Source: an uncultured Alphaproteobacteria bacterium (lineage in GTDB: Bacteria; Pseudomonadota; Alphaproteobacteria; CAKMZR01). From it: DNA of 37,109 nt. The stretch spans positions 1 to 37,109 of the forward strand of contig CAKMZR010000001.1 in assembly GCA_929200455.1 (NCBI GenBank), given 5' to 3'. A model generated the notes under the pieces. The model was not told the DNA's origin, did not search any database, and was given only the letters and a program-made list of their open reading frames with translations. Positions 33-30,493 of the stretch are shown piece by piece. The position numbers and the translations under genes are program-made. How positions within the stretch are numbered: position 1 is the stretch's first letter; each line of letters begins with the position of its first letter.

Positions 33-413
33 GTGGTCAGGACTTTTTTTATGGATGATGATATAAACGAGCTCGAGCGGCGATTGAAAAAAGAGCAGAT
101 ACGGAAGACGGCGGCTGATGCGAGAAAGGCTGAGGTTGTGGCTGACCAAGCGGAAGGCAATGTTCTCCCAGTTGCGAGTGTTCAACAAATGCTGTCAATT
201 TTTCAACGGAACATGAACGCTCCGTTGCGTGATTTTCCTGATATTTTGGTGAAAGATGTCATGCATCTTTTCCCATCAAAGAACAGAAAGAAGGCGGAGA
301 TGGAGTTGCGGCGGAGTGCTGAGTTGCTTTGTGAGAAAATGAACGGCGTCTTGACAAATCCTGATAGCTTGATTTTCACTGATGAGGGGGAGGAGGAAAA
401 AAATGAGAAATGA
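33..413 (+). CDS. Putative terminase small subunit (start uncertain: GTG 33 or ATG 51)
   Basis: Small charged ORF immediately upstream of and overlapping the large terminase gene. Assigned by position only; no clear SD. Confidence 0.4.
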   Translation: MVRTFFMDDDINELERRLKKEQIRKTAADARKAEVVADQAEGNVLPVASVQQMLSIFQRNMNAPLRDFPDILVKDVMHLFPSKNRKKAEMELRRSAELLCEKMNGVLTNPDSLIFTDEGEEEKNEK

Positions 414-2346
414 TGAGAGTGGGTATGCGGATGTAGGTGACGTCTTTGCAAAAGTTTGGGAGGCTTCAAAGTTTAAAAAGAGGATAAAGTTGGCGGAGTG
501 GGCTAGTCAATTTAGGCGTATGAGCAATGTTGATTCGGCTCTCTCAAAATGGTCATCGTCACTTGTCCCTTGTTCAGAAGGGGTGATGAACGCTTTGAAT
601 TCTGGGAAGTATCGGCGGTTCACTTTGGTGGCACCGACACAAACCCTCAAAACAGAAATCATTCTGAACAAAACACTTTACCATATTGACAGAGAACCGA
701 CTGGTATTTTGATTGTTTTCCCAGATGAAAAGCTGGCACGAGGTTTCTCAAAAGGGCGTTTGACCAACGCAATTAATGCAACGTTTGGTGAAGGGTCCCA
801 GCTTTATCAAAGCGTTGAGGTTGATCGCGGTCGGGGGAGGCAGGCACAGGACAACACCATCGAGAGAAAAGTGACTATGAACGGCACTGAGATTGATATT
901 GTTTCGGTCTTGGCGAAAACGTCAACCATATCACGTCCTCGTGCGTTGGTTTTTGCGGATGAGGTGGATCACTACCCAGACGCAACGCGGCACCTTGACG
1001 ACCTGTACGGCAGAACACAGACCTTTATCAACGGTCAGCTTGTGCAGTCTTCGGCTCCGAAGGGTGATCATTCTGTGATTTTGGCACAGTACTATAAAAG
1101 CTACGGCTTTATTTGGAACTTGAAGTGTGTTAATTGCAGGTCATTTTTTGCACCTGAGTGGGAGATGGTCAGAGAAACAAACGCGGGGGGGCGGCTGAAG
1201 TGTCCGTGCTGTGATAAGCTTTTGACACAAAACATGATAGAGAGAGGCAATAAGGCGGGGAAGTGGTTGCACGATCCGAAAACCTCACCAATAGAAGGTT
1301 TACACATTGGACACAGATGCAACGCGTTTGCATCACCCTTCATAACGCTTGATGAGTTGATTGCTGAGCATAAAATCGCGGTGGCTTTGTTTGAGGAAAA
1401 TGCAGATGACGGCGGCTTACAAGCCTTCTTCAACAACAGAATGACCCAGAATGTGGCGGTGAAACCAATCATGGGAGAGGGCTTTGACCCGTCATCTTTG
1501 CGTAAGGGTTTTACGGGTAAATCATTACCTTTGGAAGTTGACTTTTTGACGTGTGCTATAGATACTCAAGACCAAAGGATTGAGTTTGAGGTGGTGGGGT
1601 GGTCTTGGGATTTGCAAAAAAGGTGGGGCGTGCAATACGGCAAAATTGCGATGCCTAATTCTTATGGCTCTCCTGCCACTCCTTCTGATCCGCAACTTTG
1701 GTTGGCGTTTAAGAAAATGGTCTGGAATCATCCTTACGAAACCGTGGGCGGTAAGAAGCTGGGAATATGTGCGGTGATGGTGGATAGTGGTGGGCATTAC
1801 ACGCGGCAGATTATGAAGTTTTGTCATAATCATAAAAACAGTTTGTTTATTCCGATAAAGGGAGTTTCCTTGGAAAGGCAAGATGCACAGACATGTTCAC
1901 CTTTCTCATTCAACTCGTGGCGGCGTTCGTACGGAAAAAACTGGGAGAATAAACCTTACATGATAAATACCAACTTTCTGAAGTCATACCTTTTCCGTGA
2001 ATTGGCGGCGTCTGAGAAAAAAACAGGGAATTGGCAATATGCAAAAGGTGGGGGCTATGATGATGTTTTTTTCACGAACCTTCTGACCTCAGAAATTCAA
2101 GATATTGTGAGGAGTCGGAATGGCAAGGTGAGTGTGAGGTGGGTGCATCCTGATAGTAAAATAAGGAATGAACCTGTTGATTTAATGGTTTACAATTATG
2201 CGGCGGCAAATGTGATTTATCAACTTTTGGGGGGTAATATAAGTGGGGAAAACATTAAGGCGGTTCTGAAAAAAGTATATCGTGGGGATGAGAGATTTTT
2301 AGAGGTTGACAAAAACGGAGAAGTGGTTGATGATGGCGGTGAATGA
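403..2346 (+). CDS. terL: Terminase large subunit, lambda GpA-like type
   Basis: 648 aa from ATG 403, preceded by GGAGGAGG (ORF-track start 382 is less likely). Size, first-large-gene position and the Cys knuckle CVNCRSF...CPCC resemble GpA-family terminases. Confidence 0.8.
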   Translation: MRNDESGYADVGDVFAKVWEASKFKKRIKLAEWASQFRRMSNVDSALSKWSSSLVPCSEGVMNALNSGKYRRFTLVAPTQTLKTEIILNKTLYHIDREPTGILIVFPDEKLARGFSKGRLTNAINATFGEGSQLYQSVEVDRGRGRQAQDNTIERKVTMNGTEIDIVSVLAKTSTISRPRALVFADEVDHYPDATRHLDDLYGRTQTFINGQLVQSSAPKGDHSVILAQYYKSYGFIWNLKCVNCRSFFAPEWEMVRETNAGGRLKCPCCDKLLTQNMIERGNKAGKWLHDPKTSPIEGLHIGHRCNAFASPFITLDELIAEHKIAVALFEENADDGGLQAFFNNRMTQNVAVKPIMGEGFDPSSLRKGFTGKSLPLEVDFLTCAIDTQDQRIEFEVVGWSWDLQKRWGVQYGKIAMPNSYGSPATPSDPQLWLAFKKMVWNHPYETVGGKKLGICAVMVDSGGHYTRQIMKFCHNHKNSLFIPIKGVSLERQDAQTCSPFSFNSWRRSYGKNWENKPYMINTNFLKSYLFRELAASEKKTGNWQYAKGGGYDDVFFTNLLTSEIQDIVRSRNGKVSVRWVHPDSKIRNEPVDLMVYNYAAANVIYQLLGGNISGENIKAVLKKVYRGDERFLEVDKNGEVVDDGGE

Positions 2347-2363
2347 ATTCGTGAGGAACGGAA

Positions 2364-2888
2364 ATGATATTTGAAAGTGATGTAGACTTATTTTTTTTGT
2401 ACGGGAGAAGTGGGCTAATCCCAAACGACAACGAGTTGGTTTGCGGCAAAAAACTCAACCGTGTGCAGAGTGAAGGTTTTTCCGATATGGGAACCGAGGT
2501 TGATTCGGGGGTGATGTTGAGTGTTTTGGAGGTCAATGCTTTGGGTGGTGATGAAAACCACAAAGTGGAAAAACAGGTGAGATTGCAGTGCGAATATGAA
2601 TATGATGGTTCTCAGGCGATAGCGGCTTTTGTTGAGGTATACATCATGAACGCTTTCACAGGTGAAACTCCGTTGGAGAAAAAGTTTAAAGAGGCTTTGA
2701 GTGCTTATGATGTTTTGTTGAGTGGCGGGCAGGTATCGGGATCGCTGGGCGGGCGTTCATTCTCAAATTACACTCCTGCTGATTTGAAAGAAACGATAGG
2801 AGAATTGCGGAGTGCGGCGGCAAATGAACGGCATCGCGTCGCGGGTAACTTCAATAAAACCAGACCGTTTATAGTTGAATTACCGTGA
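2364..2888 (+). CDS. Hypothetical protein between terminase and portal
   Basis: 174-aa ORF filling the gap; its stop overlaps the portal start (GTGATG). No recognisable motif. Confidence 0.5.
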   Translation: MIFESDVDLFFLYGRSGLIPNDNELVCGKKLNRVQSEGFSDMGTEVDSGVMLSVLEVNALGGDENHKVEKQVRLQCEYEYDGSQAIAAFVEVYIMNAFTGETPLEKKFKEALSAYDVLLSGGQVSGSLGGRSFSNYTPADLKETIGELRSAAANERHRVAGNFNKTRPFIVELP

Positions 2889-4324
2889 TGCTGGGATTTG
2901 GAAGTAAAAAAGACAAGGTGGTGGAGACAACGGCGGTGGCGGCAACAAGGTTGACGGCAAGGCATATATCTTTTTCTGGTGATGCACCAAGCTATCTTGA
3001 TAAAAAAGGCTTTATGGAGAGATTGGGCGGTTTTTTGTCAGGCGGGGTTTTTGGCAATGCAAAAATGGCGGCTTATGATCACCATGAAGATGCCTATACA
3101 CTCATATCTTGCTGTCGTGAAATTGCGGCGAAGTCACCTATCGTAGCTTCATATGTGAATGCAATTCAAAACAATATCACTTCACCTTCACCATCGGTGT
3201 CATTTATATGTGAAAGTAAAAGCGAAAAAGACAAGGAAGGTCTTGACAAGATTAAGATGCTTTGGGAGAAGTGGCGTGCGGATAAAAGTAATTTTTCGTC
3301 GACGGTAACGGCAGAGAGTTTTGACCAGATGTTGATAGCGGGGGTGATGATAGGCGGGGATGCGGTGGTGCTGCCTTACAAAAAAAAAGACGGCAAGATG
3401 GGCGTGCAATACGTTCCTGCGGAGTTTATTGGCTCTTCAAAAATGGACGGATGGGACTCGGAACATGCCTATGGTGTAGGCAGAGACAAATACGGCAATA
3501 TTGATGCGGTGTATTTAAAAAAGGAGGTCGGATACAATCGGATTGCAATTCAAGATTGCATTTTCATCCGTCACAATCCGATTCCATTACGTGAAAGAGG
3601 ACTGCCAGCGATTGCACCCGTGCTTGAATACATCGCAAGGTTGGATCGCTTGGACAATGATTTTTTGAAGATAACGGCTTTAGCGGCAAAACTTCAGGGG
3701 ATTCTGGTGGGCGGTACTTCTGAGGCGGCAAAGAGTGGGGTGTCAACGGCAAAGCTTGACGCGGGCAATATCAAGATTTTTGACAAGGAACTAATGGATG
3801 AGGGTGGTGCGATTTTTCATCAGATGGACTCAAAAATGCCTAATCAATCTGTGGTTGCAATGCGTCACCAGATGATGATGACGGTATCGGCGGCGTTGGG
3901 GGTGGCTTATGAGACGTTGGTGCATGATTTTTCCAAGGCAAACTTTGCGTCAAGTCGGGGGGCGTTTTTGCTTGAGCGGGATATGTATGTGAAAATGGGG
4001 CGGTGGTGGCAAGATGAATACCTCCGACCACTGTTCAACTTCTGGTGGCATATGCAGGGTTCAAAAGAGGCGGCGGCGGCGGGGGTGAATATCACCGATG
4101 CGATCTTGACGGCGGTGAGCAAACCCAAATTTGATACGCGTGGATGGGAATCGGTTGATCCAAAAAAGACAGCGGAGGCTTATTTGTTGCTGTTGAAAGA
4201 TGGCATAATTTCCCGTGAGACGATAGCAAACAAGATGGGCTTTGACTGGGAGAGGGAGCAGACGCGTCTTGAGGGTGAGAGCAAAAAAGAAGAAAAAGTA
4301 GTTGACAATGAAGAAGAAGAGTGA
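2885..4324 (+). CDS. Portal protein (lambda gpB-like size and position)
   Basis: 479 aa, located between the terminase and the prohead protease, with an acidic C-terminus. Assigned by synteny and general resemblance. Confidence 0.7.
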   Translation: MMLGFGSKKDKVVETTAVAATRLTARHISFSGDAPSYLDKKGFMERLGGFLSGGVFGNAKMAAYDHHEDAYTLISCCREIAAKSPIVASYVNAIQNNITSPSPSVSFICESKSEKDKEGLDKIKMLWEKWRADKSNFSSTVTAESFDQMLIAGVMIGGDAVVLPYKKKDGKMGVQYVPAEFIGSSKMDGWDSEHAYGVGRDKYGNIDAVYLKKEVGYNRIAIQDCIFIRHNPIPLRERGLPAIAPVLEYIARLDRLDNDFLKITALAAKLQGILVGGTSEAAKSGVSTAKLDAGNIKIFDKELMDEGGAIFHQMDSKMPNQSVVAMRHQMMMTVSAALGVAYETLVHDFSKANFASSRGAFLLERDMYVKMGRWWQDEYLRPLFNFWWHMQGSKEAAAAGVNITDAILTAVSKPKFDTRGWESVDPKKTAEAYLLLLKDGIISRETIANKMGFDWEREQTRLEGESKKEEKVVDNEEEE

Positions 4325-4803
4325 CAAGGTGCAATCACGAGTTGAATTTGGGAACAAAAAAAATGATGTACACTGCTATTTTTGCACAAGACGCGACTGG
4401 GTCAGTCGATGGGCGGCGTGTGCGGTTGAGTGGGATGGATTTGGATAGGGTGAACGGGGGCGGTGTACCTATCTTGACTAATCACAGTACTCTTTTTGAG
4501 GGCGTAAAGGGAAAAGTGATTAAGGCTGAGGTTGTAGGGCATAAGCTTATTGGCTTGATTGATGTTTACGATAAAGACTTGGCAGATATGATAAATTCAA
4601 GGATGGAGAAGGGTTCTGAGGTGGGGTTGTCCGTGGGTTTGGGGGTGAGATTTAAGGACGTTGATTGGGATAAGGAAAAGCGGGAAATTGTCTATGAAAA
4701 ATCGACGTTAACGGAGTTGAGTTTGGTTGCAACTCCTGCTTTGACTGGTGCAAAAATACTAGAAAAAGCTGAAGAAAACAAACAACCTGAACCTACAACC
4801 TAA
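4321..4803 (+). CDS. Prohead maturation protease, HK97 (S78) family
   Basis: Motifs GLSVGLG and LTELSLVATPAL are typical of HK97-type prohead proteases; lies between portal and capsid. Start is GTG 4321 or ATG 4363. Confidence 0.75.
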   Translation: MTRCNHELNLGTKKMMYTAIFAQDATGSVDGRRVRLSGMDLDRVNGGGVPILTNHSTLFEGVKGKVIKAEVVGHKLIGLIDVYDKDLADMINSRMEKGSEVGLSVGLGVRFKDVDWDKEKREIVYEKSTLTELSLVATPALTGAKILEKAEENKQPEPTT

Positions 4804-4820
4804 GATGGAAGGAATTTGAA

Positions 4821-6494
4821 ATGAGCAATCATAACGTGAAGTTTGAGAACGGCGGGCAGTTTAAGGCGACGATGGACGTCGGCGGCGGCAATGCGGCTTT
4901 TGAGGCTTTGGTAAAGCGTGAAAAAGAGATGGGAGACGGGGGTAAAGATTTTGCATCGTACGATGCAAAAAATCCTGATGCGAAGCTTGAGGCGGGAGCG
5001 ATCAACCAGAAGTTGGAACAGAGCGTCGGCAAGGTGAACTTTGATGCACAAGAAAAGCAACCAGAGGTTGCAAAGGTGGAAGATAAGCTTTCTGCTGGTG
5101 ATATTGCACGCAATGCGTGTGCTTTGGCGGGGGTGAAGCCAGAAGGGAAGGCTTTTGATGAGAGTGTGGGCAGGGTTTTTTCCCTAATGGAAAAGAACCC
5201 CACGATCTCGGCGTCGTCGATTGAAGCTTCAGAGATGATGAGATTGCAAAAAGCTTCATTAGAAATCGATAAACAGCCTGAAAAAGAGGGCTTTGATTTG
5301 AAAAATGCTGGGCGTGTGGTTGTCGGTGATAAGGTGGCGGGGGAGCAACCAGAAGCGGCGTTTGATGTGTCACTTGCCTCACAGATGTTGCGATTTGGCA
5401 TTACAGACAACCCAGAGTTGAAGGGTATTGTTGAGGGGGAAAACGAATATGCTTTTGATTTGCGTTCTGCTGGTGGGCGGGAAGGCGGGAGGGCGGCTGA
5501 CAATGCCTTTATGTCTTTGATGGCGTTTGCGGGAAGTAAAGAAGAGCGTGACGATAAGGCTGAAAAAGGTCTTTTTGTGTCAAGTGCTAATCACAACTTT
5601 GACGTGAGAGTCACGGGAAGTGATGCTGATGGTAAGTCGTTGGTTGACACTCAAAAAGCGAAGGTGTTTTCTCGCTTTTTTGTCCCTCACCTTGCCAAAC
5701 AACTTGGGCTTTCACCGACGATGGTGAAGAAGGGCGGCGGGGATTATCGTCAGGTTGCGGTGCGTGTGAGTTCAAATAAGATTTTGCACAAGGGCGAAAT
5801 GGTGAATGCTGAAGAAACACTTTTTAGGACAGATAGCAACACCTTTAAACCCAAAAGGCTCACGACGAAGGTGGTTTTGAGCAATTTGACTGAGATTTAT
5901 CAACCTAACATTGTGGGCATAATTCGTGATTTGCTCTTGAAGGGCGTCATTGCGGAGATGCAAGATGTGATTTTGACGGGTAGTGGGTCTGGAGAGGAAC
6001 CAAGGGGATTGATTAACTTCACTTCAACCGCGGCAAACCTTGGGGTTTCTGCGGCTTTGAATGTGGCGGGTTTCAACGGCATTTCTCAGACATTTGCAGG
6101 TCAGACTGGGTTGCAATTTGATCCTTATTCAGTGAGGGTAATCACCAGTAAAAAGGTTGCGGACTACTTGAAAAGTGAGCAAAGGGTTGTTAATGGGTCG
6201 GCTTTTTGGAAGGGTTCGAGTTTGACATTTACAGATAAAACGGGCGTAATCGATGATGACTATGTTGCTATTTCAGCTTACGGTATGCCTAAGAATGGTG
6301 CGACAGAACAGTTGTTGATTTTGCAACTCATGGATGTGTTTATGCTTTATTGGCAAAATGCTAATATATTGATTGATCCGTTTGGCGTGAATGCGGATAG
6401 GGATGCGATTTCAATAACCTTAAATGCCTATTGGAACTTGGGGGAGGCATATAACGGTGCGGCGGGTGCGGTGAAGTGTAACAATATTGCTTGA
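4821..6494 (+). CDS. Major capsid protein, HK97 fold, with long N-terminal scaffold/delta-like extension
   Basis: 557 aa directly after the protease. The C-terminal half has a capsid-family-like segment (VILTGSGSGEEPRGLINF); the N-terminal ~250 aa is charged and Ala-rich. Confidence 0.75.
   Translation: MSNHNVKFENGGQFKATMDVGGGNAAFEALVKREKEMGDGGKDFASYDAKNPDAKLEAGAINQKLEQSVGKVNFDAQEKQPEVAKVEDKLSAGDIARNACALAGVKPEGKAFDESVGRVFSLMEKNPTISASSIEASEMMRLQKASLEIDKQPEKEGFDLKNAGRVVVGDKVAGEQPEAAFDVSLASQMLRFGITDNPELKGIVEGENEYAFDLRSAGGREGGRAADNAFMSLMAFAGSKEERDDKAEKGLFVSSANHNFDVRVTGSDADGKSLVDTQKAKVFSRFFVPHLAKQLGLSPTMVKKGGGDYRQVAVRVSSNKILHKGEMVNAEETLFRTDSNTFKPKRLTTKVVLSNLTEIYQPNIVGIIRDLLLKGVIAEMQDVILTGSGSGEEPRGLINFTSTAANLGVSAALNVAGFNGISQTFAGQTGLQFDPYSVRVITSKKVADYLKSEQRVVNGSAFWKGSSLTFTDKTGVIDDDYVAISAYGMPKNGATEQLLILQLMDVFMLYWQNANILIDPFGVNADRDAISITLNAYWNLGEAYNGAAGAVKCNNIA
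4949..4970. repeat. 22-bp perfect palindrome TTTTGCATCGTACGATGCAAAA (copy 1, inside capsid gene)
   Basis: Read directly. Self-complementary and translated in frame as F-A-S-Y-D-A-K. Confidence 0.95.
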
Positions 6495-6503
6495 TGAAAG
6501 GAA

Positions 6504-6821
6504 GTGATGATGAGTAAAACAGTTGAAAGTGTGAAGATGTATGCCAAAGTGCCTTTTTTCAAGCCAGACGGCGAGATGGTTAAGGCGGGGACGGTGGTGA
6601 CAGAAGAGGATGCGAAGAGGTGGGCAGTAGGTTCTCAACATATCACCACCGATCGTGACAGTTGTGAAGATACAACCGTGCATGTGCCTCAGGTGCAATT
6701 GCAACCTCAGGTAGGCGGTTTGTCGCAAGATGAGGTGGCGATTTTGGTTAAGAAGGTTGAGGAAATATCAAAAGAAAACCAAGAGATGAAATCACAAATA
6801 GCAAACTTGAAGGGTGCGTAA
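6504..6821 (+). CDS. Hypothetical head-module protein
   Basis: 105-aa ORF right after the capsid gene, with GGAAG upstream. Possible starts are GTG 6504, ATG 6507 or ATG 6510. Confidence 0.5.
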   Translation: MMMSKTVESVKMYAKVPFFKPDGEMVKAGTVVTEEDAKRWAVGSQHITTDRDSCEDTTVHVPQVQLQPQVGGLSQDEVAILVKKVEEISKENQEMKSQIANLKGA

Positions 6822-6822
6822 G

Positions 6823-7080
6823 ATGGCACAGTTGGTTATAAAAAAACTAGTCAACCAAGAGTTGATTATTGAAGATGCGACGGTTGATGAGGACGGCAAC
6901 TATGTTGTGGACGTTGATGATAGCGTGGCTGAGGTGAGGGGGTATTTTACTCAACTGGGGGTTGATGGGGAAAGGGTAAAGACGAAGGCTGATGTTGATG
7001 CGGAGAGGGTGCGTCGTCGCAAGAGGGGACTCAGAAAAACACAACCAGACCAATCAAACCAATCGAAGAAAGGTAAATAA
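6823..7080 (+). CDS. Hypothetical protein with basic C-terminus
   Basis: ATG 6823 lies just after the upstream TAA; the ORF-track start at 6814 overlaps it. 85 aa. Confidence 0.5.
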   Translation: MAQLVIKKLVNQELIIEDATVDEDGNYVVDVDDSVAEVRGYFTQLGVDGERVKTKADVDAERVRRRKRGLRKTQPDQSNQSKKGK

Positions 7081-7082
7081 AA

Positions 7083-8072
7083 ATGACTAACGTAACCACG
7101 TTTGCGGGTTTTAATAGGGCAATTATCACGCCATCTGGCGGCGATGATGCAACGGTTTGTTTGATTGAAGGTGTTTTGCGGGGTGATTTGGCTGAAGAGA
7201 GGACAGAGAGTGATGCGTTTTCAGGCAGTAGTGAGGTGATTGCGACTTTGTTAACTGCGGGAAAATCAACTTTGACGTTAAGTGTGAACCAAACGCCACC
7301 CGAATTGTGGCGGTTGTCGGGTGGAAAGGTGATAGTTGATACGACAGGAGCAACGGGTCCTAGGTTGCATTATCCTTCTTCACAATTAATAAAAACCGAT
7401 CCAGAAACACCCCAGATTTCATCCAGAAGTGGTTCTGCCATGTTTTTTGAAGGCAACAACGCGGGGGATGTGCCTGCGGACGTAGGTCACATCTCTTTTT
7501 ACGTGCAAATGACGCAAGGCACAACTGATTACACATTTTCATCCGTGAAGGTTTGGCGGGTGGATGGTGGTTATATCAAAGAGGTTGCAAACGGCAATGT
7601 TCCTGATGTTGGTTTCCTCAACCGCAAGTTGGTATATGAAACAACAAACTTGAATTTGACAACTACTTCTCATAGCTTACGAGTTGACGGTTTGACCCAT
7701 TTTCATATCAGTGCTTATTCAACTCAAGAAAAAAATACGGATATAGGTAAGTTTTCACAGGGTGGTCAGGGAGAAACGGTGGGCTACTTTGTTGATATGT
7801 ACGAGAGTGGGCAAGGTCATTCCGTTTTGCGAATTCCGAATGGCGGTATTATAGGAAAAAGACCATTCGTGTCACTCATGTTGGTGGGAGATACACCAGA
7901 AGGTGGTTCGAGTCGGACTGTTCTATTTCCAACTGTGAAATTGAAGCCAATGGGTATGCCTGGCTTTGAGGCGAGGGCGTTCACAGAGACTGAATTGGAA
8001 GTTGATGTACGTAAGAGTGGCCTTATCGGGGGCTACACACATCAACACATGCTTGTCAACATGACAGATTAA
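7083..8072 (+). CDS. Hypothetical virion structural protein (possible major tail protein)
   Basis: 329-aa ORF in the head-tail region. Assigned by position and size only. Confidence 0.4.
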   Translation: MTNVTTFAGFNRAIITPSGGDDATVCLIEGVLRGDLAEERTESDAFSGSSEVIATLLTAGKSTLTLSVNQTPPELWRLSGGKVIVDTTGATGPRLHYPSSQLIKTDPETPQISSRSGSAMFFEGNNAGDVPADVGHISFYVQMTQGTTDYTFSSVKVWRVDGGYIKEVANGNVPDVGFLNRKLVYETTNLNLTTTSHSLRVDGLTHFHISAYSTQEKNTDIGKFSQGGQGETVGYFVDMYESGQGHSVLRIPNGGIIGKRPFVSLMLVGDTPEGGSSRTVLFPTVKLKPMGMPGFEARAFTETELEVDVRKSGLIGGYTHQHMLVNMTD

Positions 8073-8086
8073 GGTGGAGTCGGCAT

Positions 8087-8386
8087 GTGGTTTTTTCAAC
8101 GAAAAAGTTTTATCATCCGTCAATAACAAACGCTCTCAAGGTTGACGGCGACGACACAACCTATAGGTGTGTGTACACGTATGTGAGAGAGAGTGATGAC
8201 GGCGTGACCAATTCACAGCACACCATCACAATCCCAGAAGAGGTTGAGGGGGCGATAAAGACGGGTGCGAGATTGACGATCGACGGCACAAAGCGGTTCA
8301 AGGTGCAACGTATAGTTGCGGCTGAAAAGTGGGGTAGAAAGGGTGGTATGGGAGAACTGACAATCTTTTTGACGGAAGAGGCTTGA
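8087..8386 (+). CDS. Hypothetical head-tail module protein
   Basis: GTG start with AAGGTGGAG 7 nt upstream; 99 aa. Confidence 0.5.
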   Translation: MVFSTKKFYHPSITNALKVDGDDTTYRCVYTYVRESDDGVTNSQHTITIPEEVEGAIKTGARLTIDGTKRFKVQRIVAAEKWGRKGGMGELTIFLTEEA

Positions 8387-8387
8387 G

Positions 8388-8852
8388 ATGAAAACAGCAT
8401 TTTCTCATGATTTGAATAAGCTGAAATCAATCGTTTCGGCGTGGGCAACCGATAAGGGCTTCGAGCAACCGACGGTTGCACCCGATCCGACTCCGTGGCT
8501 TGATGAGGATGTGGATAGGGACGGTAAAAAGCGTGTTCATATCATCCCCAAAATTGAGACAGGGGTTGAAGTTGTCGGCGGTTCAGATTTTGGGAAGGAA
8601 GTTGAGGTGTATCGGCATTTTCAAGTTTTGTTTTTTTGGAATGTCTCGGGCGATATAACGGTTGAAAGTTGGTGTGATTTCCGTGATGAGATAGATGGGC
8701 TTTTACCTATTATTATCAAAAAAACGCGGCGAGAAGTTGAGTGGGTGAGTGAGAGTTTAGATTTTGCGGATAATTTGGGTAATGTAGGTTCTGGCAACCT
8801 GCAGTTGTCGGCGGTGCTTAAAATTGCGTCAAGGGTGGTGACCTTGATATGA
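8388..8852 (+). CDS. Hypothetical tail-module protein
   Basis: 154-aa ORF, contiguous with its neighbours. Confidence 0.5.
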   Translation: MKTAFSHDLNKLKSIVSAWATDKGFEQPTVAPDPTPWLDEDVDRDGKKRVHIIPKIETGVEVVGGSDFGKEVEVYRHFQVLFFWNVSGDITVESWCDFRDEIDGLLPIIIKKTRREVEWVSESLDFADNLGNVGSGNLQLSAVLKIASRVVTLI

Positions 8853-9394
8853 AAAAAAAGAACAAATACAATGAACCCCACACCCACATCTTTCACGCTT
8901 GGCGTTATGATATAGTTTTGGATAAGTGGACCCGACCTGCAACCTTGAAAGACTACCAGAGGTTGACTTGGTTTCCTTACGAGTTTCTGCGTTTAGTGTA
9001 CATCTTGAGGGTGTGTATGTATCCGAGGTGTACGCTTTTTGAACTTTTTAGGATGTGGGTGAAGGGCGATTTACCGTCTTTGATGAGAAAAATACATACG
9101 ATTCTTCTTTATGCAAGACCCGAAAAAGGTGACGGGATTGCGGCGGCGAATACAACCGTGACGGATATGGAGGTGCTGAGTAAGATTGAACAACAAAAAG
9201 CAATCAAGGCGTTTCTGGTGTTAATTCAGGCGGGGATGAGTGTATGTGATATTGTGAATTTGACGGCTTATCAGGCACACGTTTTGCAATCAGGGATTGG
9301 TATTGAGGAGATGAAGAAGAGTGGTAATTTTGATCCAAAACAACTAACCCAGATGGACGACCCGCTTAATCGTACACCAAAAAGTGGAGGTTGA
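8849..9394 (+). CDS. Hypothetical protein at the tail-assembly-chaperone position
   Basis: 181-aa ORF immediately upstream of the tape measure; ATGA overlap with the previous gene. Confidence 0.45.
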   Translation: MKKKNKYNEPHTHIFHAWRYDIVLDKWTRPATLKDYQRLTWFPYEFLRLVYILRVCMYPRCTLFELFRMWVKGDLPSLMRKIHTILLYARPEKGDGIAAANTTVTDMEVLSKIEQQKAIKAFLVLIQAGMSVCDIVNLTAYQAHVLQSGIGIEEMKKSGNFDPKQLTQMDDPLNRTPKSGG

Positions 9395-9395
9395 T

Positions 9396-11384
9396 ATGGT
9401 CGGCAGGACAGAAAAAAGAAAAACAGAGATAATAACGGACGGTGATTCGCGGGGTTATCAGAGGTCTACAAAGGCGGCGGGCAAGGCGAATGACTTTTTG
9501 GTAAGTAGTTTGAAGAAAGTCACAAACATTGCAACTGCGGTGTTTGTGGGGTTGTCGGCGGCGGTGGGGGTGGCAATAAAGGCGTTTGATGAACAGATAA
9601 GGGCAGAGAGAAAGTTAAGAAACGCGTTGCAGAATTCAGGGCGTGAGGTTGAGAAGAACACAGCTTACCTTAAAGAGCAGGCGGCGGCGTTGCAAAGGGT
9701 GACGGATATTGGTGATGAGACCACACTTGCATTGCAATCACTGATTGCACCCGTCAAGTCTTTGACGGTTCAGGGGATACAGAGGGCGACAAAGGCGGCG
9801 ATTGATATGGCGACGGCTTTGGACAAGGGGCTGACTCGGACAACGCGGCTTTTGGCACAGGCTTTGGAGGCTCCGATCGCGGGGCTTACGACTTTGCGGA
9901 CGAACGGAATCGAGTTCACGGAGGAGCAGAAAGACCTCATTAAGCAACTGGTGAACACCAATCGCACATTTGAGGCACAAAGCATCATCCTCAAAAAAAT
10001 AGAGGATAGGTATGGTCGTGTGAGTGAGAAGCTGGCAAAAACACCACTTGCAGTTGTACAACGTGTGAAGAATGAGTTTGGTGATATTTTGGAGATAGTG
10101 GGTGATGTAGCGTCGGAGGCTTTGGTGCCTTTCCTCTTAAGGTTGAAAGATATGCTACAATCTTGGAAAGAGAATGAGGGGGCGATAAGAAGGGTGACTG
10201 AAATCACGCTTGACCTTATTAAGTTTTTAGGTGTTTTCCTTACCTTGGCACTGGGGGCAAGGGGTATTGTTGCGGTGACGGCGGCGGTTAACCTATTAGC
10301 GGTTGCATTTAGGACGGGCAGAGTAGCGGCGTCGGCGTTTTGGGGCAGTGCAACGCTGGGGGCGTCGCTTTTGATAACGGAGTTTGACACGATAAATGGT
10401 GCGATTGAACACTTGATTTCTCGCTTTAAAGTTGCAACAAAAGAGAGCAAGGGTGTTGTTGACCCTCGCGGCGGCGGGCGGTTGACGCCAGAAGAACAGC
10501 TTGCGGCGTTTAGAGGTTCACAACAACCAGAAGTTGAAGAGGAGGAGGCGGGGGCGGCGTCGGGATCGGGCGGGGTGCAACCTGTGAATAGAGAAACACC
10601 ACAACCATCGGGCGAGTTGCAAATTGACGGGAGTGCGGGGCTGTCCGATCCGAACAGCACGGCGGCGTTCCGTGCGGCAAACGAATCCAAAACAGAGGCT
10701 GAAGTCGAATATAGGGAAAAACTGAAGGAAATCAGGCAAGAGGCTGATGATGCGGAGAGGGAGAGGCGAGAAAAAGAAGAAGAAGAGGTGAAGGAACACA
10801 ATGCAACGCTTTTTCAACGTGCGGTTGATTTTGGCAAAAGGCTTGCAGACCTGAGACAGAAGCGTATCGAGGAGGAGAAGAGGGCTGAAGAGGCTTTGCG
10901 TGATTTCAAAATCAAGGCGGCGTCCGACGCGGCGACGGGTGCGGCACGTGTATTCCGATCTGCATTACTACATCAGGTTGCAACTTTGATAAAGGCGGTG
11001 CCTGCGTTGTTTGTGGCACAGGGGGCGGCAACAGGTGGAATATTCGGCTTGTTTGCTACTTTGGCAAAGGTGGCGGCGGTTGTCGAGCCTTTGCGGACAA
11101 TACATGATATTCTCTCGTCGGAATCGCCAAAGTTTCATGAGGGCGGGACGGTAAGGGCGGCAAAAACGGGAGGTGAGGTCACGGCAACACTTCAGGACGG
11201 CGAGACGGTGTTTTCGAGGGGAGACACGCACAAGTTGATTAATAGGTTGTCGGATAAGCTTGAGAGGGGCGGCGGCGGTGGGGTGTTGCGGGTGCTAATA
11301 GGGGTTGAGGATGAGGAGGGAATGGTAAGGTATCTTAGAGGTAAATTGGCAGAAGACACAGAGGAAAAGGATTTGATCACATGA
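9396..11384 (+). CDS. Tail tape measure protein
   Basis: 662 aa from ATG 9396 (GGAGG upstream). Has hydrophobic segments, long helical Ala/Leu-rich regions, the motif LRTNGIEFTEEQKDLIKQL, a charged coiled coil and a Gly5 tract. Confidence 0.8.
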   Translation: MVGRTEKRKTEIITDGDSRGYQRSTKAAGKANDFLVSSLKKVTNIATAVFVGLSAAVGVAIKAFDEQIRAERKLRNALQNSGREVEKNTAYLKEQAAALQRVTDIGDETTLALQSLIAPVKSLTVQGIQRATKAAIDMATALDKGLTRTTRLLAQALEAPIAGLTTLRTNGIEFTEEQKDLIKQLVNTNRTFEAQSIILKKIEDRYGRVSEKLAKTPLAVVQRVKNEFGDILEIVGDVASEALVPFLLRLKDMLQSWKENEGAIRRVTEITLDLIKFLGVFLTLALGARGIVAVTAAVNLLAVAFRTGRVAASAFWGSATLGASLLITEFDTINGAIEHLISRFKVATKESKGVVDPRGGGRLTPEEQLAAFRGSQQPEVEEEEAGAASGSGGVQPVNRETPQPSGELQIDGSAGLSDPNSTAAFRAANESKTEAEVEYREKLKEIRQEADDAERERREKEEEEVKEHNATLFQRAVDFGKRLADLRQKRIEEEKRAEEALRDFKIKAASDAATGAARVFRSALLHQVATLIKAVPALFVAQGAATGGIFGLFATLAKVAAVVEPLRTIHDILSSESPKFHEGGTVRAAKTGGEVTATLQDGETVFSRGDTHKLINRLSDKLERGGGGGVLRVLIGVEDEEGMVRYLRGKLAEDTEEKDLIT

Positions 11385-11836
11385 GTTATCATTTTGTGAG
11401 AAATGTATCGGGTGGGTTGTATAATTTGGACTACACCACACCACACCAACCAGTTGTGCAATTTCCGATAAAGCGTGGCAGTAAGCAAGATGGGGTGATG
11501 TACAACGGCTTACCTTATTACGTGAGAACACCACCGTATCATGAATTCAACTTGTCGTTGCAGGGTGCGAATGATTTGGATGTGACGGCGTTTACGACCA
11601 TGTTTTCATCTAATGCACCAATAACGTGCAATTTAGTTGGAGGCACGCACGCGGGCGGGTGGTCTCAGGGTGAGGCTGATTATGGTCTCGCGGCGGTGTT
11701 GCGTGGGACTTTTCAGGCGGTGCCTTTGGGGGATTTGATAGTGCAGAGCATGAACAACCCTTATGATCCGATTTTGGATGAGGGGGTGGAAAGTCGCGTG
11801 TGGGTTGTCACTGCAAACTTTGGGATAACGGTATGA
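11381..11836 (+). CDS. Hypothetical distal tail protein
   Basis: 151-aa ORF overlapping the tape-measure stop. Assigned by position only. Confidence 0.5.
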   Translation: MSYHFVRNVSGGLYNLDYTTPHQPVVQFPIKRGSKQDGVMYNGLPYYVRTPPYHEFNLSLQGANDLDVTAFTTMFSSNAPITCNLVGGTHAGGWSQGEADYGLAAVLRGTFQAVPLGDLIVQSMNNPYDPILDEGVESRVWVVTANFGITV

Positions 11837-13269
11837 GCGTACTAGACAACTTATCGTTGTACTTTGGCAAACTGGGTTCAAACAGTACCTTCAACCGTTT
11901 TGGCGATGATTTTGACGTGAAATACGTCGGAAATTCACATGATATAGACTGGGCAGACGTCTTAAGCTTGACCAACACCACACCTTGTCGGACTGGCAAA
12001 TACGATAGTTTCATATACAAAGCGGGTGAGTCGGCTTTGGAAAGGTGGGTTTTACGTGTGAAAAAGAGGGTGGTGGTTTTGGATTATTACGGGGCAAACT
12101 TTATTTTGAGCAAGGGAACGGGCAACGGTAGAACGGTTCTTATGTTTGGGCGGGCAAATGAGGTGATAGAGAAGAGGGATTATGATGAGATTGTGATAAA
12201 AAACGTTCTTTCTCATTACTGGAACCGACCACTTGATACAACTTGGGGTAGCAATGCGGAGTATAGAGATGGCTTTGCAAAGGGGGCGATGGGGTATCAA
12301 TTCCCTAATAGTGATTTTGACGGCGGCAACGAATCACTTGATATGCATCCTTCACCACAAACGATAGGCGGCTACCTGCAGTTGCAAAGCATGATAAACG
12401 GGAGGGGTTATTATGGCGTTGATTTACCAAATATCTCACATAGCAACACACTTACAACCGACGCGGGAAGAAGGGTAGAGGTGGACTATTTATCGGTGAA
12501 AGAGATTGAGAGTGCAAAGGTCTGTAATTCAATCTGGCTGAGGGGGATAGGCGATACGAGAATGGCGGTATTTGATCCTCAGAGCGTTTTGGAATACGGC
12601 GAAAAGAAGCTTGATATAGGCGGGGTGAGAGTGGAATCACTATCAGAAGTTGCAAAGATGTTCACGCGGCGGGCGGCAAGGCGTATTGAGGTGAGATCAC
12701 CAATTGACTTTTCCTTCCACTTTTACGGGAAAAACCAAGGTAATCTTGTGACAAGAAACTTTCAGAGGCAGATAGTTTCTGATTTGGATGCGGGGACTTT
12801 GGGTATGCAACTTAAGATGGTAAAGATTACGAATGGGAGTGAGGTGGTGGATAACGCGGGAGAACGATTGCCAGTCTGCTATTTAGTGGACTGGCAAGGT
12901 GGGGATGGGGTGTTGCATTTTAGAAATGCGGTGAGTGGGGTTTTTGCGAGAGATGAGAGAGGGTTGTGGAAAAAGCATGTTGGCTACGATGTGCAATTTC
13001 AATCAAATACACGTATAGATAGAGTGATGACGGTGCCACAGGTTCAGGCGGCTGAATGGTTTGCGTTTTTTGAGGGGGTTTTGGTGAACGGCGGTGTGGC
13101 AGGACTACCCTTGGTTGTGCAAGACCTCGCGAATCCTCCACTTGACTTTTACAAGGCTGAGTGGTATTTACAGAGTACAAGATACGATGTTTTTCATGAC
13201 GTCATGACGACGGTATGGGTGGACGGGGCGAATATGACGTCGTCGCAATTTTCAGAAAGGCAACTTTGA
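11833..13269 (+). CDS. Hypothetical tail/baseplate protein
   Basis: ATG 11833 in an ATGA overlap with the upstream stop; 478 aa. Confidence 0.5.
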   Translation: MSVLDNLSLYFGKLGSNSTFNRFGDDFDVKYVGNSHDIDWADVLSLTNTTPCRTGKYDSFIYKAGESALERWVLRVKKRVVVLDYYGANFILSKGTGNGRTVLMFGRANEVIEKRDYDEIVIKNVLSHYWNRPLDTTWGSNAEYRDGFAKGAMGYQFPNSDFDGGNESLDMHPSPQTIGGYLQLQSMINGRGYYGVDLPNISHSNTLTTDAGRRVEVDYLSVKEIESAKVCNSIWLRGIGDTRMAVFDPQSVLEYGEKKLDIGGVRVESLSEVAKMFTRRAARRIEVRSPIDFSFHFYGKNQGNLVTRNFQRQIVSDLDAGTLGMQLKMVKITNGSEVVDNAGERLPVCYLVDWQGGDGVLHFRNAVSGVFARDERGLWKKHVGYDVQFQSNTRIDRVMTVPQVQAAEWFAFFEGVLVNGGVAGLPLVVQDLANPPLDFYKAEWYLQSTRYDVFHDVMTTVWVDGANMTSSQFSERQL

Positions 13270-14042
13270 TGGGCAATAATGCACTGAGAAAAGTAACACC
13301 GAATAGCGTTTTTCCTGCTGATGGAGCGGATCAGTATTTTACAGCTTTAAGTGGTGATTTGTATCCAAGAGATATAAGCGGCAACGTCGCAAGCGGAGCG
13401 GCTAACTTGGGTTCACCTACAATTCCTTGGGGAACGATGGCGGCGGGCGGGCTTGTTTTGGGCAGTCAGACGGTGAATGAGGAGAAGATAAGGCGTCTTG
13501 ATGACCTTCTCACGATACAATCTTTAGGTGTGTACCATGTGGACAAGATAAGCAATCCGACGAATAGAGTTTTATACACTGCACCTACATTTTCAAGTGC
13601 AAATACCAAGATGAAGGCGGTTGTGTTTTCATCATTTTATGTGAAACAAGGCGTTGTGGTGAGGAATGTGAAGAGAGCAAATGCAACCTTGAGTATACAT
13701 ATGGCGGGTTTGAAAATGGGGCAATATTCACTTCTGGATGACACACCGACGGTTGGCGGTGCTTCAGAATCTTCTGGCTTTTATCAAAAGATGGTGTGGC
13801 AGGAGGACTCGACAACGGGGAACACAAGCGAGGCGGCTTCAACTGGAGGTGGCATTGTGGACTTTTACACATCGGAGGGCTTTGGCTTCAACACGGCATC
13901 GGGGGCGACTGGGTTGGTCAACCTAGGGGCGAACTCAATATCGATGGCAAGGCTTTCATCAGGTCAGACAATTTCACTTGCGAACATTGCAAACGTGACT
14001 TCTGATTTTGAGTTTGCGGCGGCGATCCTTCTTACAACTTAA
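13269..14042 (+). CDS. Hypothetical tail protein
   Basis: ATG 13269 in a TGATG overlap; 257 aa. Confidence 0.5.
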   Translation: MGNNALRKVTPNSVFPADGADQYFTALSGDLYPRDISGNVASGAANLGSPTIPWGTMAAGGLVLGSQTVNEEKIRRLDDLLTIQSLGVYHVDKISNPTNRVLYTAPTFSSANTKMKAVVFSSFYVKQGVVVRNVKRANATLSIHMAGLKMGQYSLLDDTPTVGGASESSGFYQKMVWQEDSTTGNTSEAASTGGGIVDFYTSEGFGFNTASGATGLVNLGANSISMARLSSGQTISLANIANVTSDFEFAAAILLTT

Positions 14043-14052
14043 AGGTGAAAGA

Positions 14053-14691
14053 ATGGACTCGGTCAAGATTAAAATCACTACCAAAAACATGTTTTCTCGG
14101 CGTGGTAAGTCTGAGTTGCTGGGGGCAAAACCTCAAACTTTTGCACAGCGTTTTCCGTCGACGTTTTTCACACCAAAACATCTTGACAGACTGAGGCGGC
14201 GGGCGGCTAGTCGGGGGCTGAGGAAGGCAAGGCGGGTGGCAGAAAAAGATATGAAAAAGCGTCTGAAACTTCCATCAAGAGTTGTAAAAAAAAGGGTGAA
14301 GGCGATCCGCTTGAAGGCGTCGGCAAGAGGCAACCCAGCGTTGTTTATAGGTGAGAACAGTGTGAAAATTGAGGATACAAAATTCACGCTTAAGATGAGT
14401 GTGGGCGGGCGGGGCAGATTGCGTGCAAAGAATCCGTTCACGGGGAAACTTGAGTATCCTGCGAGGGCGTTTATAAACCCCAAAAAACCAACGAACATTT
14501 TGAGAAGAGAGGGCGGGCAGAGGTATCCAGTTCGGACGGCTTACTGGTCTGAGGCTAGGAATGGGCTTTTTGGGAGTGAGACGGCAACACGCGAGGCGTT
14601 CATGAGAAATGCAACCAAAGCGGTAGCGGATGAGGTGTTCAGGGATTATATTTTACAACTAGACAAGGCAGATAGGAGAAAATTCGGATGA
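14053..14691 (+). CDS. Hypothetical highly basic protein
   Basis: ATG 14053 with AAAGGTGAAAG upstream; 212 aa, Arg/Lys-rich. Confidence 0.5.
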   Translation: MDSVKIKITTKNMFSRRGKSELLGAKPQTFAQRFPSTFFTPKHLDRLRRRAASRGLRKARRVAEKDMKKRLKLPSRVVKKRVKAIRLKASARGNPALFIGENSVKIEDTKFTLKMSVGGRGRLRAKNPFTGKLEYPARAFINPKKPTNILRREGGQRYPVRTAYWSEARNGLFGSETATREAFMRNATKAVADEVFRDYILQLDKADRRKFG

Positions 14692-15107
14692 TATATGAAT
14701 TCATGAACAACCCTTTGTGGGATACGTGGATAAGATTAATACACCTAGAGATTGAACTTGTGGCGAGTCAGGTGGGCGTTTTTTCCTATTTTATGAACCC
14801 TGCGAATAAGGGAAACGGCAACACTTCACATCCGATGAGGCGGGTTGGTGATAGGAAGGTGAAACCCGAAAAGCAAAGTTTCATCTCAAGGTTGATATTT
14901 GTAGAGATAACGAGTGTTTTGATGACGGTGATGATTTTCTCGGTGATGCGTTCACTTGGCAAGATTGATATAGACTTCATATCTCAATTTTCATACATGA
15001 ATGAGTTTATATTTTGCTTGGCTGTTCTGGCTTGCACGCTAGGGTTTAAAAAGGTCAAGGATTTAGGGGTTGATTTGTTTTCGCTTTGGAGAGGAGGTAG
15101 ACGATGA
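14688..15107 (+). CDS. Hypothetical membrane protein (lysis-cassette neighbour)
   Basis: 139 aa with two hydrophobic segments (LIFVEITSVLMTVMIFSV and FIFCLAVLACTLGF). Confidence 0.5.
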   Translation: MIYEFMNNPLWDTWIRLIHLEIELVASQVGVFSYFMNPANKGNGNTSHPMRRVGDRKVKPEKQSFISRLIFVEITSVLMTVMIFSVMRSLGKIDIDFISQFSYMNEFIFCLAVLACTLGFKKVKDLGVDLFSLWRGGRR

Positions 15108-15193
15108 GTTTGAAGGAACATTTGTTTTATACACTATTCACAGCAACTGTGAGTTGTGCTTTTGGTCTGTTTTTAGTTGGTGTTTTGTACTAG
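15104..15193 (+). CDS. 29-aa hydrophobic peptide (MSLKEHLFYTLFTATVSCAFGLFLVGVLY), absent from the ORF track
   Basis: ATG in an ATGA overlap with the upstream stop, GGAGGAGG 5-6 nt upstream, single predicted TM segment. Confidence 0.4.
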   Translation: MSLKEHLFYTLFTATVSCAFGLFLVGVLY

Positions 15194-15203
15194 GAGAAGT
15201 TAG

Positions 15204-15599
15204 ATGTTGGGCGAGGTATTTGTAAGAGGGGTGATGACAGTTGTGGGTAAGTTTTTGGGCAATGGGAATGAGGCAGACGAGAGAAAAAAACAACTTGAAA
15301 GTGAATTAATCGCGTTGTTTGAAACTCAAATAAAGGGGCAGTTAAAGGTTAATGAAAAAGAGGCGGCACATCGTAGCGTTTTCGTGGCGGGGTGGCGACC
15401 ATTCATAGGCTGGGTTTGCGGCGTGTCGATAGCGTATACATACATTTTCAGACCAATCGCAACTGATGTTGCGGCGTTTTATGGGCGGCATCTCTTCTTG
15501 ACGGAGTTGGATAGCGGGGCTTTAATGGCGTTGGTGACGGGGATGCTGGGGCTTGGTGGCATGAGGACGTATGAAAAGTGGCGGGGGGTGAGTAAATAA
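15204..15599 (+). CDS. Holin, 3-TM (GTA-type holin family)
   Basis: 131 aa with AGGAGAAG upstream. The motif EAAHRSVFVAGWRPFIGW followed by hydrophobic helices matches my recollection of the 3TM holin family; lies upstream of the endolysin. Confidence 0.6.
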   Translation: MLGEVFVRGVMTVVGKFLGNGNEADERKKQLESELIALFETQIKGQLKVNEKEAAHRSVFVAGWRPFIGWVCGVSIAYTYIFRPIATDVAAFYGRHLFLTELDSGALMALVTGMLGLGGMRTYEKWRGVSK

Positions 15600-15600
15600 G

Positions 15601-15629
15601 TTGACACGTACACCAAAAAGTGGTAGAAG
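15601..15629 (+). promoter_or_regulatory. Candidate sigma70-type promoter (TTGACA-17 nt-TAGAAG with TGn extended -10 context)
   Basis: Perfect -35, 17-nt spacer ending GTGG as in the early cassettes, weak -10. Sits directly after the holin stop. Confidence 0.4.
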
Positions 15630-15630
15630 A

Positions 15631-15707
15631 GGTTTGTGGGGATCGTAAATTCCTATGCTTGTGACGGCAAATCCTCTCGGGGATTGCTTTAAACGATCCC
15701 CACAACC
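15631..15707 (+). ncRNA. Structured RNA element (13-bp GC-rich stem enclosing a second hairpin), function unknown
   Basis: 15634-15646 pairs perfectly with 15693-15705. Inner stem AATCC/GGATT around 15670-15685. Non-coding; lies between the candidate promoter and the tRNA. Confidence 0.4.
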
Positions 15708-15713
15708 ATATGT

Positions 15714-15788
15714 TGCAGATTGGAGCAGTGGTAGCTCGTCAGGCTCATATCCTGAAGGTCATGGGTTCAAATCCCATATCTGCACCCA
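15714..15788 (+). tRNA. tRNA with CAU anticodon (Met, or Ile2 if lysidine-modified), CCA encoded
   Basis: Manual cloverleaf. Acceptor TGCAGAT/ATCTGCA; D stem GAGC/GCTC with loop AGTGGTA. Anticodon stem TCAGG/CCTGA with loop CTCATAT. Variable loop AGGTC; T stem ATGGG/CCCAT with loop TTCAAAT; discriminator C plus CCA. Confidence 0.9.
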
Positions 15789-15812
15789 TTTTTTCTACGA
15801 AAGGTTGAGTTG

Positions 15813-16331: not shown

Positions 16332-16332
16332 G

Positions 16333-19539: not shown

Positions 19540-19543
19540 AAAA

Positions 19544-21916: not shown

Positions 21917-21917
21917 G

Positions 21918-24089: not shown

Positions 24090-24105
24090 TTTGAGGAGAG
24101 AAAAA

Positions 24106-30440: not shown

Positions 30441-30493
30441 ACTATAGAGGGAATGGGTCAATAAATAGGGGTGGGAGAAATGAGGATGATGTG

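Follow-up and report, generated by a model that had tools for sequence, protein, structure and literature searches.

A 22-bp palindrome repeated within structural genes of an orphan phage belongs to a family of putative operators linked to an SprT-like metalloprotease gene

The window analysed here, a stretch of 37,109 nucleotides (contig CAKMZR010000001.1, assigned to an uncultured Alphaproteobacteria bacterium), is a phage genome with all of its genes on the + strand. The element under study is a 22-bp perfect palindrome, TTTTGCATCGTACGATGCAAAA, which occurs in exact copies at 4949-4970 and 17190-17211, inside the open reading frames (ORFs) of two structural genes (Table 1). Two further copies, each with a single mismatch, are intergenic and begin 1-4 nt past stop codons, with T-runs from 23372 and 30928; the first of these adjoins a gene for an SprT-like zinc metalloprotease. 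A fifth, degenerate copy (TTTGGCATCGGCGGTTGCAAAA), which matches at 17 of 22 positions, emerged from a graded mismatch census in which 0.03 matches were expected at five or fewer mismatches, and may be a decaying or weak site.

No match to the 22-mer was found in 100 dinucleotide shuffles of the genome. Copies 1 and 2 are its longest perfect palindromes, and among 200 Markov-simulated genomes a palindrome of at least 22 bp appeared in three and was repeated in none. The palindrome is preceded by a T-run and followed by an A-run on both strands, which is the wrong polarity for an intrinsic terminator, and a terminator scanner called none of the copies; an intrinsic terminator was therefore rejected. 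Taken as 24-mers, copies 1 and 2 are exact reverse complements of each other, and taken as 25-mers so are copies 3 and 4; in copy 2 the symmetry continues imperfectly outward to 17181-17218 (CAATCGC..GTGATTG; 6/7 matches, P ~0.0015 per site). The original prediction, made from this stretch without database searches, had described the exact pair and its common reading frame, both one-mismatch intergenic copies, an abundance beyond chance and the unsuitable terminator polarity, and in all of these respects it was borne out.

Table 1. Positions of the palindrome copies and of the features associated with them in the 37,109-nt window.
Feature	Position	Strand	Description
Copy 1	4949-4970	strandless	Perfect 22 bp, 18-bp core of the putative operator at 4951-4968; in ORF 4821-6494, read FASYDAK
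Copy 2	17190-17211	strandless	Perfect 22 bp; in 1068-aa ORF 16333-19539, read FASYDAK
Copy 3	23374-23395	strandless	Intergenic, one mismatch G5>T; -10-like TACGAT at 23384-23389
Copy 4	30929-30950	strandless	Intergenic, one mismatch C18>A; TACGAT at 30939-30944
Copy 5, degenerate	19458-19479	strandless	TTTGGCATCGGCGGTTGCAAAA, 17/22 matches; near 3' end of ORF 16333-19539, read LASAVAK
SprT-like zinc metalloprotease gene	22730-23371	+	PF10263, E = 8e-11; HExxH, C-terminal Cys4 ribbon; 3 nt before copy 3
Leader of copy 3	23396-23429	+	G-rich, Shine-Dalgarno sequence (AAAGGGGTAGGGGTAATCAACTGGGGCGGGAGAA); connects copy 3 to ATG of ORF 23430-24089
Leader of copy 4	30951-30984	+	G-rich; upstream of ORF 30997-31686 (HAD/PNK-like) and helicase-primase genes
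Leader without palindrome	30448-30484, within 30441-30490	+	Same leader type as at copies 3 and 4
Sigma-70 cassettes	20040, 21213, 22629, 24463, 28594, 29670		A-tract UP element, TTGACA, 17 nt, extended -10 TGnTAATGT
Candidate helix-turn-helix (HTH) ORF of the original prediction	25491-25841	+	ORFan; HTH assignment without tool support

Both perfect copies are read at codon offset 2 as the heptapeptide FASYDAK, and the degenerate copy shares their frame; the remaining two frames give FCIVRCK or LHRTMQ. The codons that spell FASYDAK in copies 1 and 2 are non-preferred, with a probability of 0.0013 given the peptide. The shared frame is best explained as the least harmful accommodation of a constraint acting on the DNA, and from two perfect intragenic palindromes and a third decaying in the same frame we infer DNA-level selection that overrides protein coding. 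The original prediction had assigned the two perfect copies to a major capsid gene and a tail-fibre gene. A capsid-fold match is indeed present in the 557-aa product of the first ORF; since it is limited to residues 262-463, copy 1, which encodes residues 44-50 and starts 128 nt into this capsid-precursor ORF, lies in a scaffold/delta-like N-terminal part. The ORF directly follows a separate protease ORF. The second gene encodes a 1068-aa ORFan (16333-19539) of the structural module that has neither a family match nor a homologue, and is presumed to be a fibre or distal tail protein by position only. The prohead protease (4321-4803) and the scaffold-capsid protein (4821-6494), separate ORFs here, are fused into one protein in L102, a distant relative, and also in the profiles of PHROG 617/4523.

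Copies 3 and 4 are each fused to a G-rich leader with a Shine-Dalgarno sequence, the two leaders being 93% identical. A leader of this type is also present once without a palindrome, which marks the palindrome as a separable module. Within the palindrome itself lies a -10-like hexamer, TACGAT, with positions A2 and T6 present, an element absent from the original prediction. At copy 4, a -35-like TTGAGC (30915-30920, read directly from the sequence) is separated from TACGAT by an 18-nt spacer. Apparent -10 elements downstream of the palindrome (TAATCA/CAATCA) were rejected as lacking T-7, and GGCGGGAG, seemingly common to copy 1 and the promoter cassettes described below, was rejected as 4 nt out of register. 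About 75 nt upstream of copy 4, within ORF 30491-30925, there is a single 16-bp perfect palindrome, CGTCTTTATAAAGACG (30839-30854), which the scanner reads as terminator-like on both strands and the length of which is within the chance range.

There are six near-identical sigma-70 early promoter cassettes, which fill six of the gaps between 20 and 30 kb and include a conserved leader with AAGGTCA...AAAGGTCA. None of the six carries the palindrome; copies 3 and 4 fill two further gaps. Three of the four palindromes lie outside the 20-30 kb cassette zone, and the perfect intragenic copies fall within a 27-kb stretch where sigma-70 cassettes are missing and the genes leave hardly any space between them. 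A seventh promoter-like site, TTGACA-18-TAATTT, lies at 19943.

The relevant neighbour of the palindrome, which the original prediction did not mention, is the SprT-like gene. The 18-mer TTKCATCGTACGATGMAA was searched exactly in viral, genome and metagenome collections (596 Gb for genomes and metagenomes), giving about 100 matches (38 genome, 57 metagenome, 5 viral), a single one per contig and in near-chance numbers. No genome carried the motif in multiple copies, which rules out a common host repeat of the REP, RPE or uptake-sequence type, the outcome that the original prediction had named as its own undoing. Comparison of all window proteins with these ~100 loci by tblastn revealed that seven encode an SprT-like homologue (31-45% identity, E = 1e-30 to 1e-48), and no other window protein matched any of the seven. 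In six of them SprT homology begins 13-48 nt downstream of the palindrome. Two loci (L070 and L087) have the arrangement TTGACT-17 nt-TACGAT-7 nt-ATG, with the -10 inside the palindrome; since the -35 is well spaced, the mRNA would start downstream of the palindrome. At another locus (L146), two palindromes flank the promoter TTGACG-17-TAGACT.

Using an alignment of the SprT-like proteins, relatives were identified in 190 viral contigs and 80 loci were fetched. A strict family detector (TTGYATYGTRCRATRCAA) found 51 palindromes in 87 SprT-like loci, totalling 661 kb, against 0.6 expected. The palindrome is therefore one of a family that is linked to the SprT-like gene, overlaps core promoter elements in several loci and is multicopy per phage; the 18-bp dyad of the window fits TTGYATYGTRCRATRCAA, and copy 3 adjoins the SprT-like gene. 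The family has the half-site TTG(T/C)AT(C/T)GT and the general form TGYA-N8-TRCA, in a dyad of 18-22 bp. Its commonest variant among the viral loci is TTGTATCGTACGATACAA. The window core, TTGCATCGTACGATGCAA, differs from this at 1-2 symmetric positions and is identical to the sites in L015, L055, L070, L087, L090 and L096; further variants near SprT genes are TTGCATCGTACGATACAA, TTGTATTGYRCAATACAA, TTGGATTGTGCAATCCAA, TTGTAATGTRCATTACAA and TTGTAAYGGCCATTACAA. Some SprT loci carry tandem palindromes ~45 bp apart, or pairs flanking a promoter. Three (L122, L155 and L171) have 3-4 palindromes per 8 kb ahead of different small genes, and in four others (L106, L107, L133 and L173) the palindrome directly follows the SprT stop codon, a placement like that of copy 3 in the window. 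The operator-proximal genes in other phages are small ORFans, none of them regulator-like.

Clustering and phmmer comparison of the 87 SprT loci identified the SprT-like gene as the only gene common to all; the gpA-type terminase and portal are shared with one subgroup only. In that subgroup (L147, L159, L162, L165, L168, L177 and L178), where terminase and portal are distantly related to those of the window, the SprT-like gene and its putative operator seem to occupy, like a moron, the place between terminase and portal. The C at position 4 of the window motif (TTGCAT vs TTGTAT) is independent of the SprT tree, protein identity being 44.5% within and 44.4% between the two classes; either base may occur beside SprT proteins as close as 91-94% identity, and mixed sites are frequent. 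As this base does not track the tree, the window motif belongs to the main class.

The predicted operator is far more conserved than the ~40%-identical SprT protein beside it. The motif recurs in very different backgrounds, with 35-54% GC, among them Nitrospirales chromosomes and many unrelated viral contigs. In two Nitrospirales species, which share a 95%-identical region, it is found at the 5' end of the SprT-like gene (L015 4181-4202 and L027 5258-5279) and is extended to ~26 bp (GAAATTTTGCATCGTACGATGCAAAATTC); L027 has the same G>T variant as copy 3 of the window. Searches of the searchable literature with the window 12-mer core, the family 10- and 12-mer cores and the commonest 18-mer returned unrelated oligonucleotides and primers only, so this widespread family is apparently undescribed.

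Conservation of this kind could reflect either the duplex or a folded strand, and the latter alternative holds that the palindrome is an RNA or single-stranded DNA hairpin bound by a protein, which would serve in processing or stabilisation, as a translational operator, or in antitermination of the nut/boxB kind with reloading along long transcripts. All copies do lie in the transcribed sense strand, and the coding copies fold strongly as RNA (-12.4 and -18.6 kcal/mol; z = -3.6 and -6.3), copy 2 with extended pairing. In position the intergenic copies recall nutR behind cro, since they come after the first or the third gene of an early operon, and the centre of family sites is not always self-complementary (GTGC/GCAC), as a loop would permit. 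However, these intergenic copies are broken in mid-stem by U·C and G·A mismatches, fold no better than shuffled sequences (-5.8 and -4.2 kcal/mol; z = -1.2 and -0.25) and lose the hairpin altogether in a wider folding context, on which grounds a lambda-type nut/boxB RNA was rejected. At symmetric positions of 46 distinct family sites, 3 of 57 mismatches (5%) are G·T, compared with 17% expected at random; since wobble is not preferred, base pairing is not what is conserved. In L070 and L087, where transcription would start downstream, the palindrome lies outside the RNA. Identity at all 18-22 positions beside proteins that are ~40% identical is unlike stem conservation, and its persistence across very divergent loci points to sequence-specific readout. 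Terminator-like sites, including intrinsic terminators, are no more frequent in the genome than chance. The wobble, folding, promoter-position and sequence-identity results thus favour duplex DNA read by a symmetric or dimeric protein, and the hairpin, which the original prediction had kept as an alternative, is weakened to the point that we regard it as unlikely, the strong folding of the coding copies notwithstanding.

We consider it probable that the palindrome is a duplex-DNA operator for a dimeric, sequence-specific protein, belonging to the SprT-promoter-linked family, with the intergenic copies as gates and the intragenic copies as auxiliary sites. A dimeric binding site was also what the original prediction had proposed, and that part of it gains from the family on SprT promoters, the symmetric variation and the missing wobble preference; the binder that it named does not fare as well, as described below. 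Copies 3 and 4, each combining the -10-like TACGAT with a ribosome-binding leader after a stop codon, would be regulated gates, probably either repressible internal promoters or elongation roadblocks. Copy 3 would gate the genes at 23430-24462, and copy 4 the replication module at 30997-36544 and, after circularisation, read-through into the late genes. The intragenic copies, two perfect and one decayed, would have arisen by DNA-level selection where intergenic space was lacking, all in the one reading frame that gives a harmless peptide. The perfect pair probably provides extra high-affinity sites, as roadblocks, looping partners or a titration sink. This auxiliary role is the weakest step of the proposal, as other family members seldom have clear intragenic copies.

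Several observations weigh against the operator proposal. No HTH, ribbon-helix-helix, ParB or repressor domain was detected in any early ORF with Pfam, PHROGs or NCBIfam. Copy 3 has no -35-like element and neither copy 3 nor copy 4 has an extended -10, which makes promoter function in this phage uncertain. The palindrome is near the gene in only about half of the SprT loci, and MW202777 is without it; conservation of positions 2, 3 and 8 is partly circular, as the detector required them. The rarity of clear intragenic copies in other phages leaves their role here without a family precedent. The two-sided symmetric changes seen among family sites are as compatible with a hairpin as with a dimer, the family centre may be GTGC/GCAC, and the 6/7 symmetric extension of copy 2 hints at hairpin or cruciform selection at that site.

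A rather improbable alternative is that the copies are activator-dependent middle promoters, in which the palindrome combines the -10 (TACGAT) with an activator site and the intragenic copies act as internal promoters or enhancers for the promoter-poor 27-kb stretch. The hexamer has the critical A2 and T6, copy 4 adds TTGAGC at 18-nt spacing, and the confinement of the six sigma-70 cassettes to 20-30 kb leaves three of the four palindromes in the remaining stretch; moreover, in several relatives the palindrome forms the core promoter of the SprT-like gene. A site that covers the -10 is nevertheless in the classic position of a repressor rather than an activator. Copy 3 and both coding copies lack a -35-like hexamer at 16-18 nt from TACGAT, and a start at copy 1, 128 nt inside its ORF, would yield a transcript without a start codon.

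It is very unlikely that the copies are centromere-like or genome-organising sites, analogues of the N15 sopC-like repeats or the RK2 KorB site O_B (TTTAGCSGCTAAA) bound by a ParB-type protein for segregation or silencing. The likeness is one of layout: short identical palindromes recur at 6-12 kb intervals, some of them intragenic, just as the inverted repeats of those replicons are short, identical and dispersed, some within genes, and are described as 'scattered across the genome' (PMC5016525). A ParABS, SopABC or KorB system was rejected: Pfam and PHROG scans of all the non-structural ORFs of at least 60 aa detected no ParB (ParBc), ParA, plasmid-type replication initiator, integrase or repressor; the single-strand gene layout is of the virulent type, there is no plasmid match, and in relatives the palindrome is promoter-proximal to one gene, the family being promoter-linked to the SprT-like gene. 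Equally remote is a site-specific nuclease or recombinase target, or a minute selfish palindrome that entered in frame as 24 nt (8 codons). The exact reverse complements (copies 1/2 at 24 nt, 3/4 at 25 nt) fit unit insertion or inversion, and the 8+6+8 layout recalls recombinase core sites, but there is no recombinase, transposase or HUH gene and no target-site duplication, the degenerate LASAVAK copy suggests evolution in situ by point mutation, and no genome has the motif as a multi-copy repeat.

Among known systems, the Cro-CI operators of lambda, 434 and P22 are the closest in mechanism to the putative operator, sharing an 18-22 bp dyad with half-site centres ~11 bp apart, a -10 that the site overlaps in several members of the family, and tandem pairs on either side of a promoter in an O1-O2-like manner. 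The differences are that here there is no recognisable Cro/CI protein, the sigma-70 promoters are free of sites and two perfect copies lie deep in structural genes. In genomic distribution the nearest parallel is with the stoperators of cluster A mycobacteriophages (L5, Bxb1), where one site is likewise scattered in transcribed regions, including the gaps between co-directional genes. Stoperators are asymmetric 13-mers bound by a monomer, and have been proposed to stop elongation (PMC9283540). A genome has more than 20 of them, they are orientation-dependent, and the phages that carry them are temperate and have a known immunity repressor, whereas the sites of the window are palindromic and orientationless, number 4-5, and lie in a genome of virulent-looking layout with no repressor or integrase found; membership of this class was rejected on the perfect palindrome and those two missing genes. 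LexA/SOS boxes offer a third parallel, since prophage genes of the DNA-repair type likewise have a palindrome on their promoters, with TGTA-N8-TACA superficially like CTGT-N8-ACAG, but here the same motif occurs in very different genomic backgrounds. A LexA box was rejected against the motifs mentioned in PMC8565304, every one of which differs from TGYA-N8-TRCA in spacing and half-site; a so far undescribed LexA motif of the host is conceivable.

As the binder, the original prediction had put forward an HTH product of 25494-25841. The corresponding product of 25491-25841 has no match in Pfam, PHROG, NCBIfam or the PDB and no homologue, including by exhaustive HMMER search, and its single-sequence AlphaFold model (pLDDT 41) is unusable. 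Aligned by hhalign with a Cro/CI profile, it fell in the expected register with P = 0.031 and a probability of 1.6% (controls, 0.39 and 0.58); its candidacy has neither family, structure nor homologue behind it. PDB sequence searches with seven of the early ORFs brought up no binder, and no other early protein bears a DNA-binding signature. The SprT-like protein is without a solved-structure relative by sequence. The candidate binders are the SprT-like protein, an unrecognised ORFan regulator or a host factor.

The first of these candidates leads to a speculative and doubtful possibility, that the palindrome is read sequence-specifically by the SprT-like metalloprotease itself, a DNA-dependent protease that would repress its own promoter and be targeted to sites on the phage chromosome, including those in the capsid-precursor and tail genes. 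At these sites it would cleave a DNA-bound protein, such as a phage regulator or one of the host's nucleoid or defence proteins. The idea arises because the SprT-like gene is the sole gene common to the palindrome loci and the operator outconserves the protein, an argument of guilt by association only. With the SprT/Spartan/Wss1 and ArdC-type metalloproteases the protein shares the SprT-like domain (PF10263), the HExxH motif and a C-terminal zinc ribbon. Those proteases are DNA-dependent and bind DNA; we know of no sequence-specific DNA recognition in the superfamily. If true, the phage would have a protease system directed by DNA sites, which as a principle of regulation or anti-defence would be new.

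The genome that carries these sites is complete at ~37.08 kb and circular or terminally redundant, as the contig ends (1-25 and 37085-37109) overlap by 25 nt with one mismatch (AACACCCC[A/C]TTTTTTCGCTAATTTT); in ENA the contig has a length of 37,026 bp. Its + strand is 29.7% G and 16.3% C, with a GC skew of about +0.3 in every 1-kb window, and such C-poor mRNA would be a poor Rho substrate. G-quadruplex-like runs number ten on the + strand and zero on the - strand. The lambda-like structural module (33-19936) comprises small and large (gpA-type) terminase, portal, the protease and capsid ORFs and tape-measure genes, with a tRNA-Met gene (CAT anticodon; 15714-15788) in a 210-nt gap of the tail module. 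The early and replication genes (20-37 kb) include, besides the SprT-like metalloprotease, a split Dam-like methyltransferase, a RecE-like exonuclease, a RecT-like protein, an SF2 helicase and a VapE/D5-type primase-helicase. The methyltransferase, a D12-class N6-adenine enzyme, occupies two ORFs (21876-22244 and 22264-22632) that are 19 nt apart; possible reasons for the split are recoding, a sequencing error and pseudogene status. After the primase gene, TGTTCAC/GTGAACA iterons pack the intergenic region 36570-37000, with 60-nt inverted arms at 36574-36633 and 36920-36979. This region at 36.57-37.0 kb is likely the replication origin or cosB, and since the iterons cluster there, the palindrome is unlikely to serve as an origin or cos site.

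Restriction sites are strongly avoided: CCGG (122 expected), GCGC (116) and GATATC (11.5) are absent, as are GGATCC and GTGCAC, GGCC occurs once (122) and GATC 63 times vs 171 expected (0.37 of expectation), a pattern that suggests a host with many type II restriction systems. No close phage relatives were found by megablast or by tblastn against GenBank phages, the terminase reaching 27% identity at best. In a database of 5.8 billion proteins, the terminase, the 1068-aa tail protein and the 116-aa HTH candidate retrieved only the phage's own proteins, apart from a single terminase relative at 27% identity; a capsid search gave no related loci, and scans elsewhere for the phage's other regulatory cassettes gave nothing. 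The phage is thus an orphan, and the SprT-like gene is its only gene with many relatives.

What began as the curiosity of one phage thereby becomes a family, a near-invariant 18-bp dyad that accompanies an SprT-like protease gene across dozens of otherwise unrelated phages and prophages and two Nitrospirales chromosomes. The two unrelated structural proteins forced to the same heptapeptide suggest a cis-element that overrides coding, and make this phage a clean natural system for intragenic regulatory sites. If the binder were found, it would open a way into how a widespread, uncharacterised phage gene family is regulated, and perhaps into what it does.

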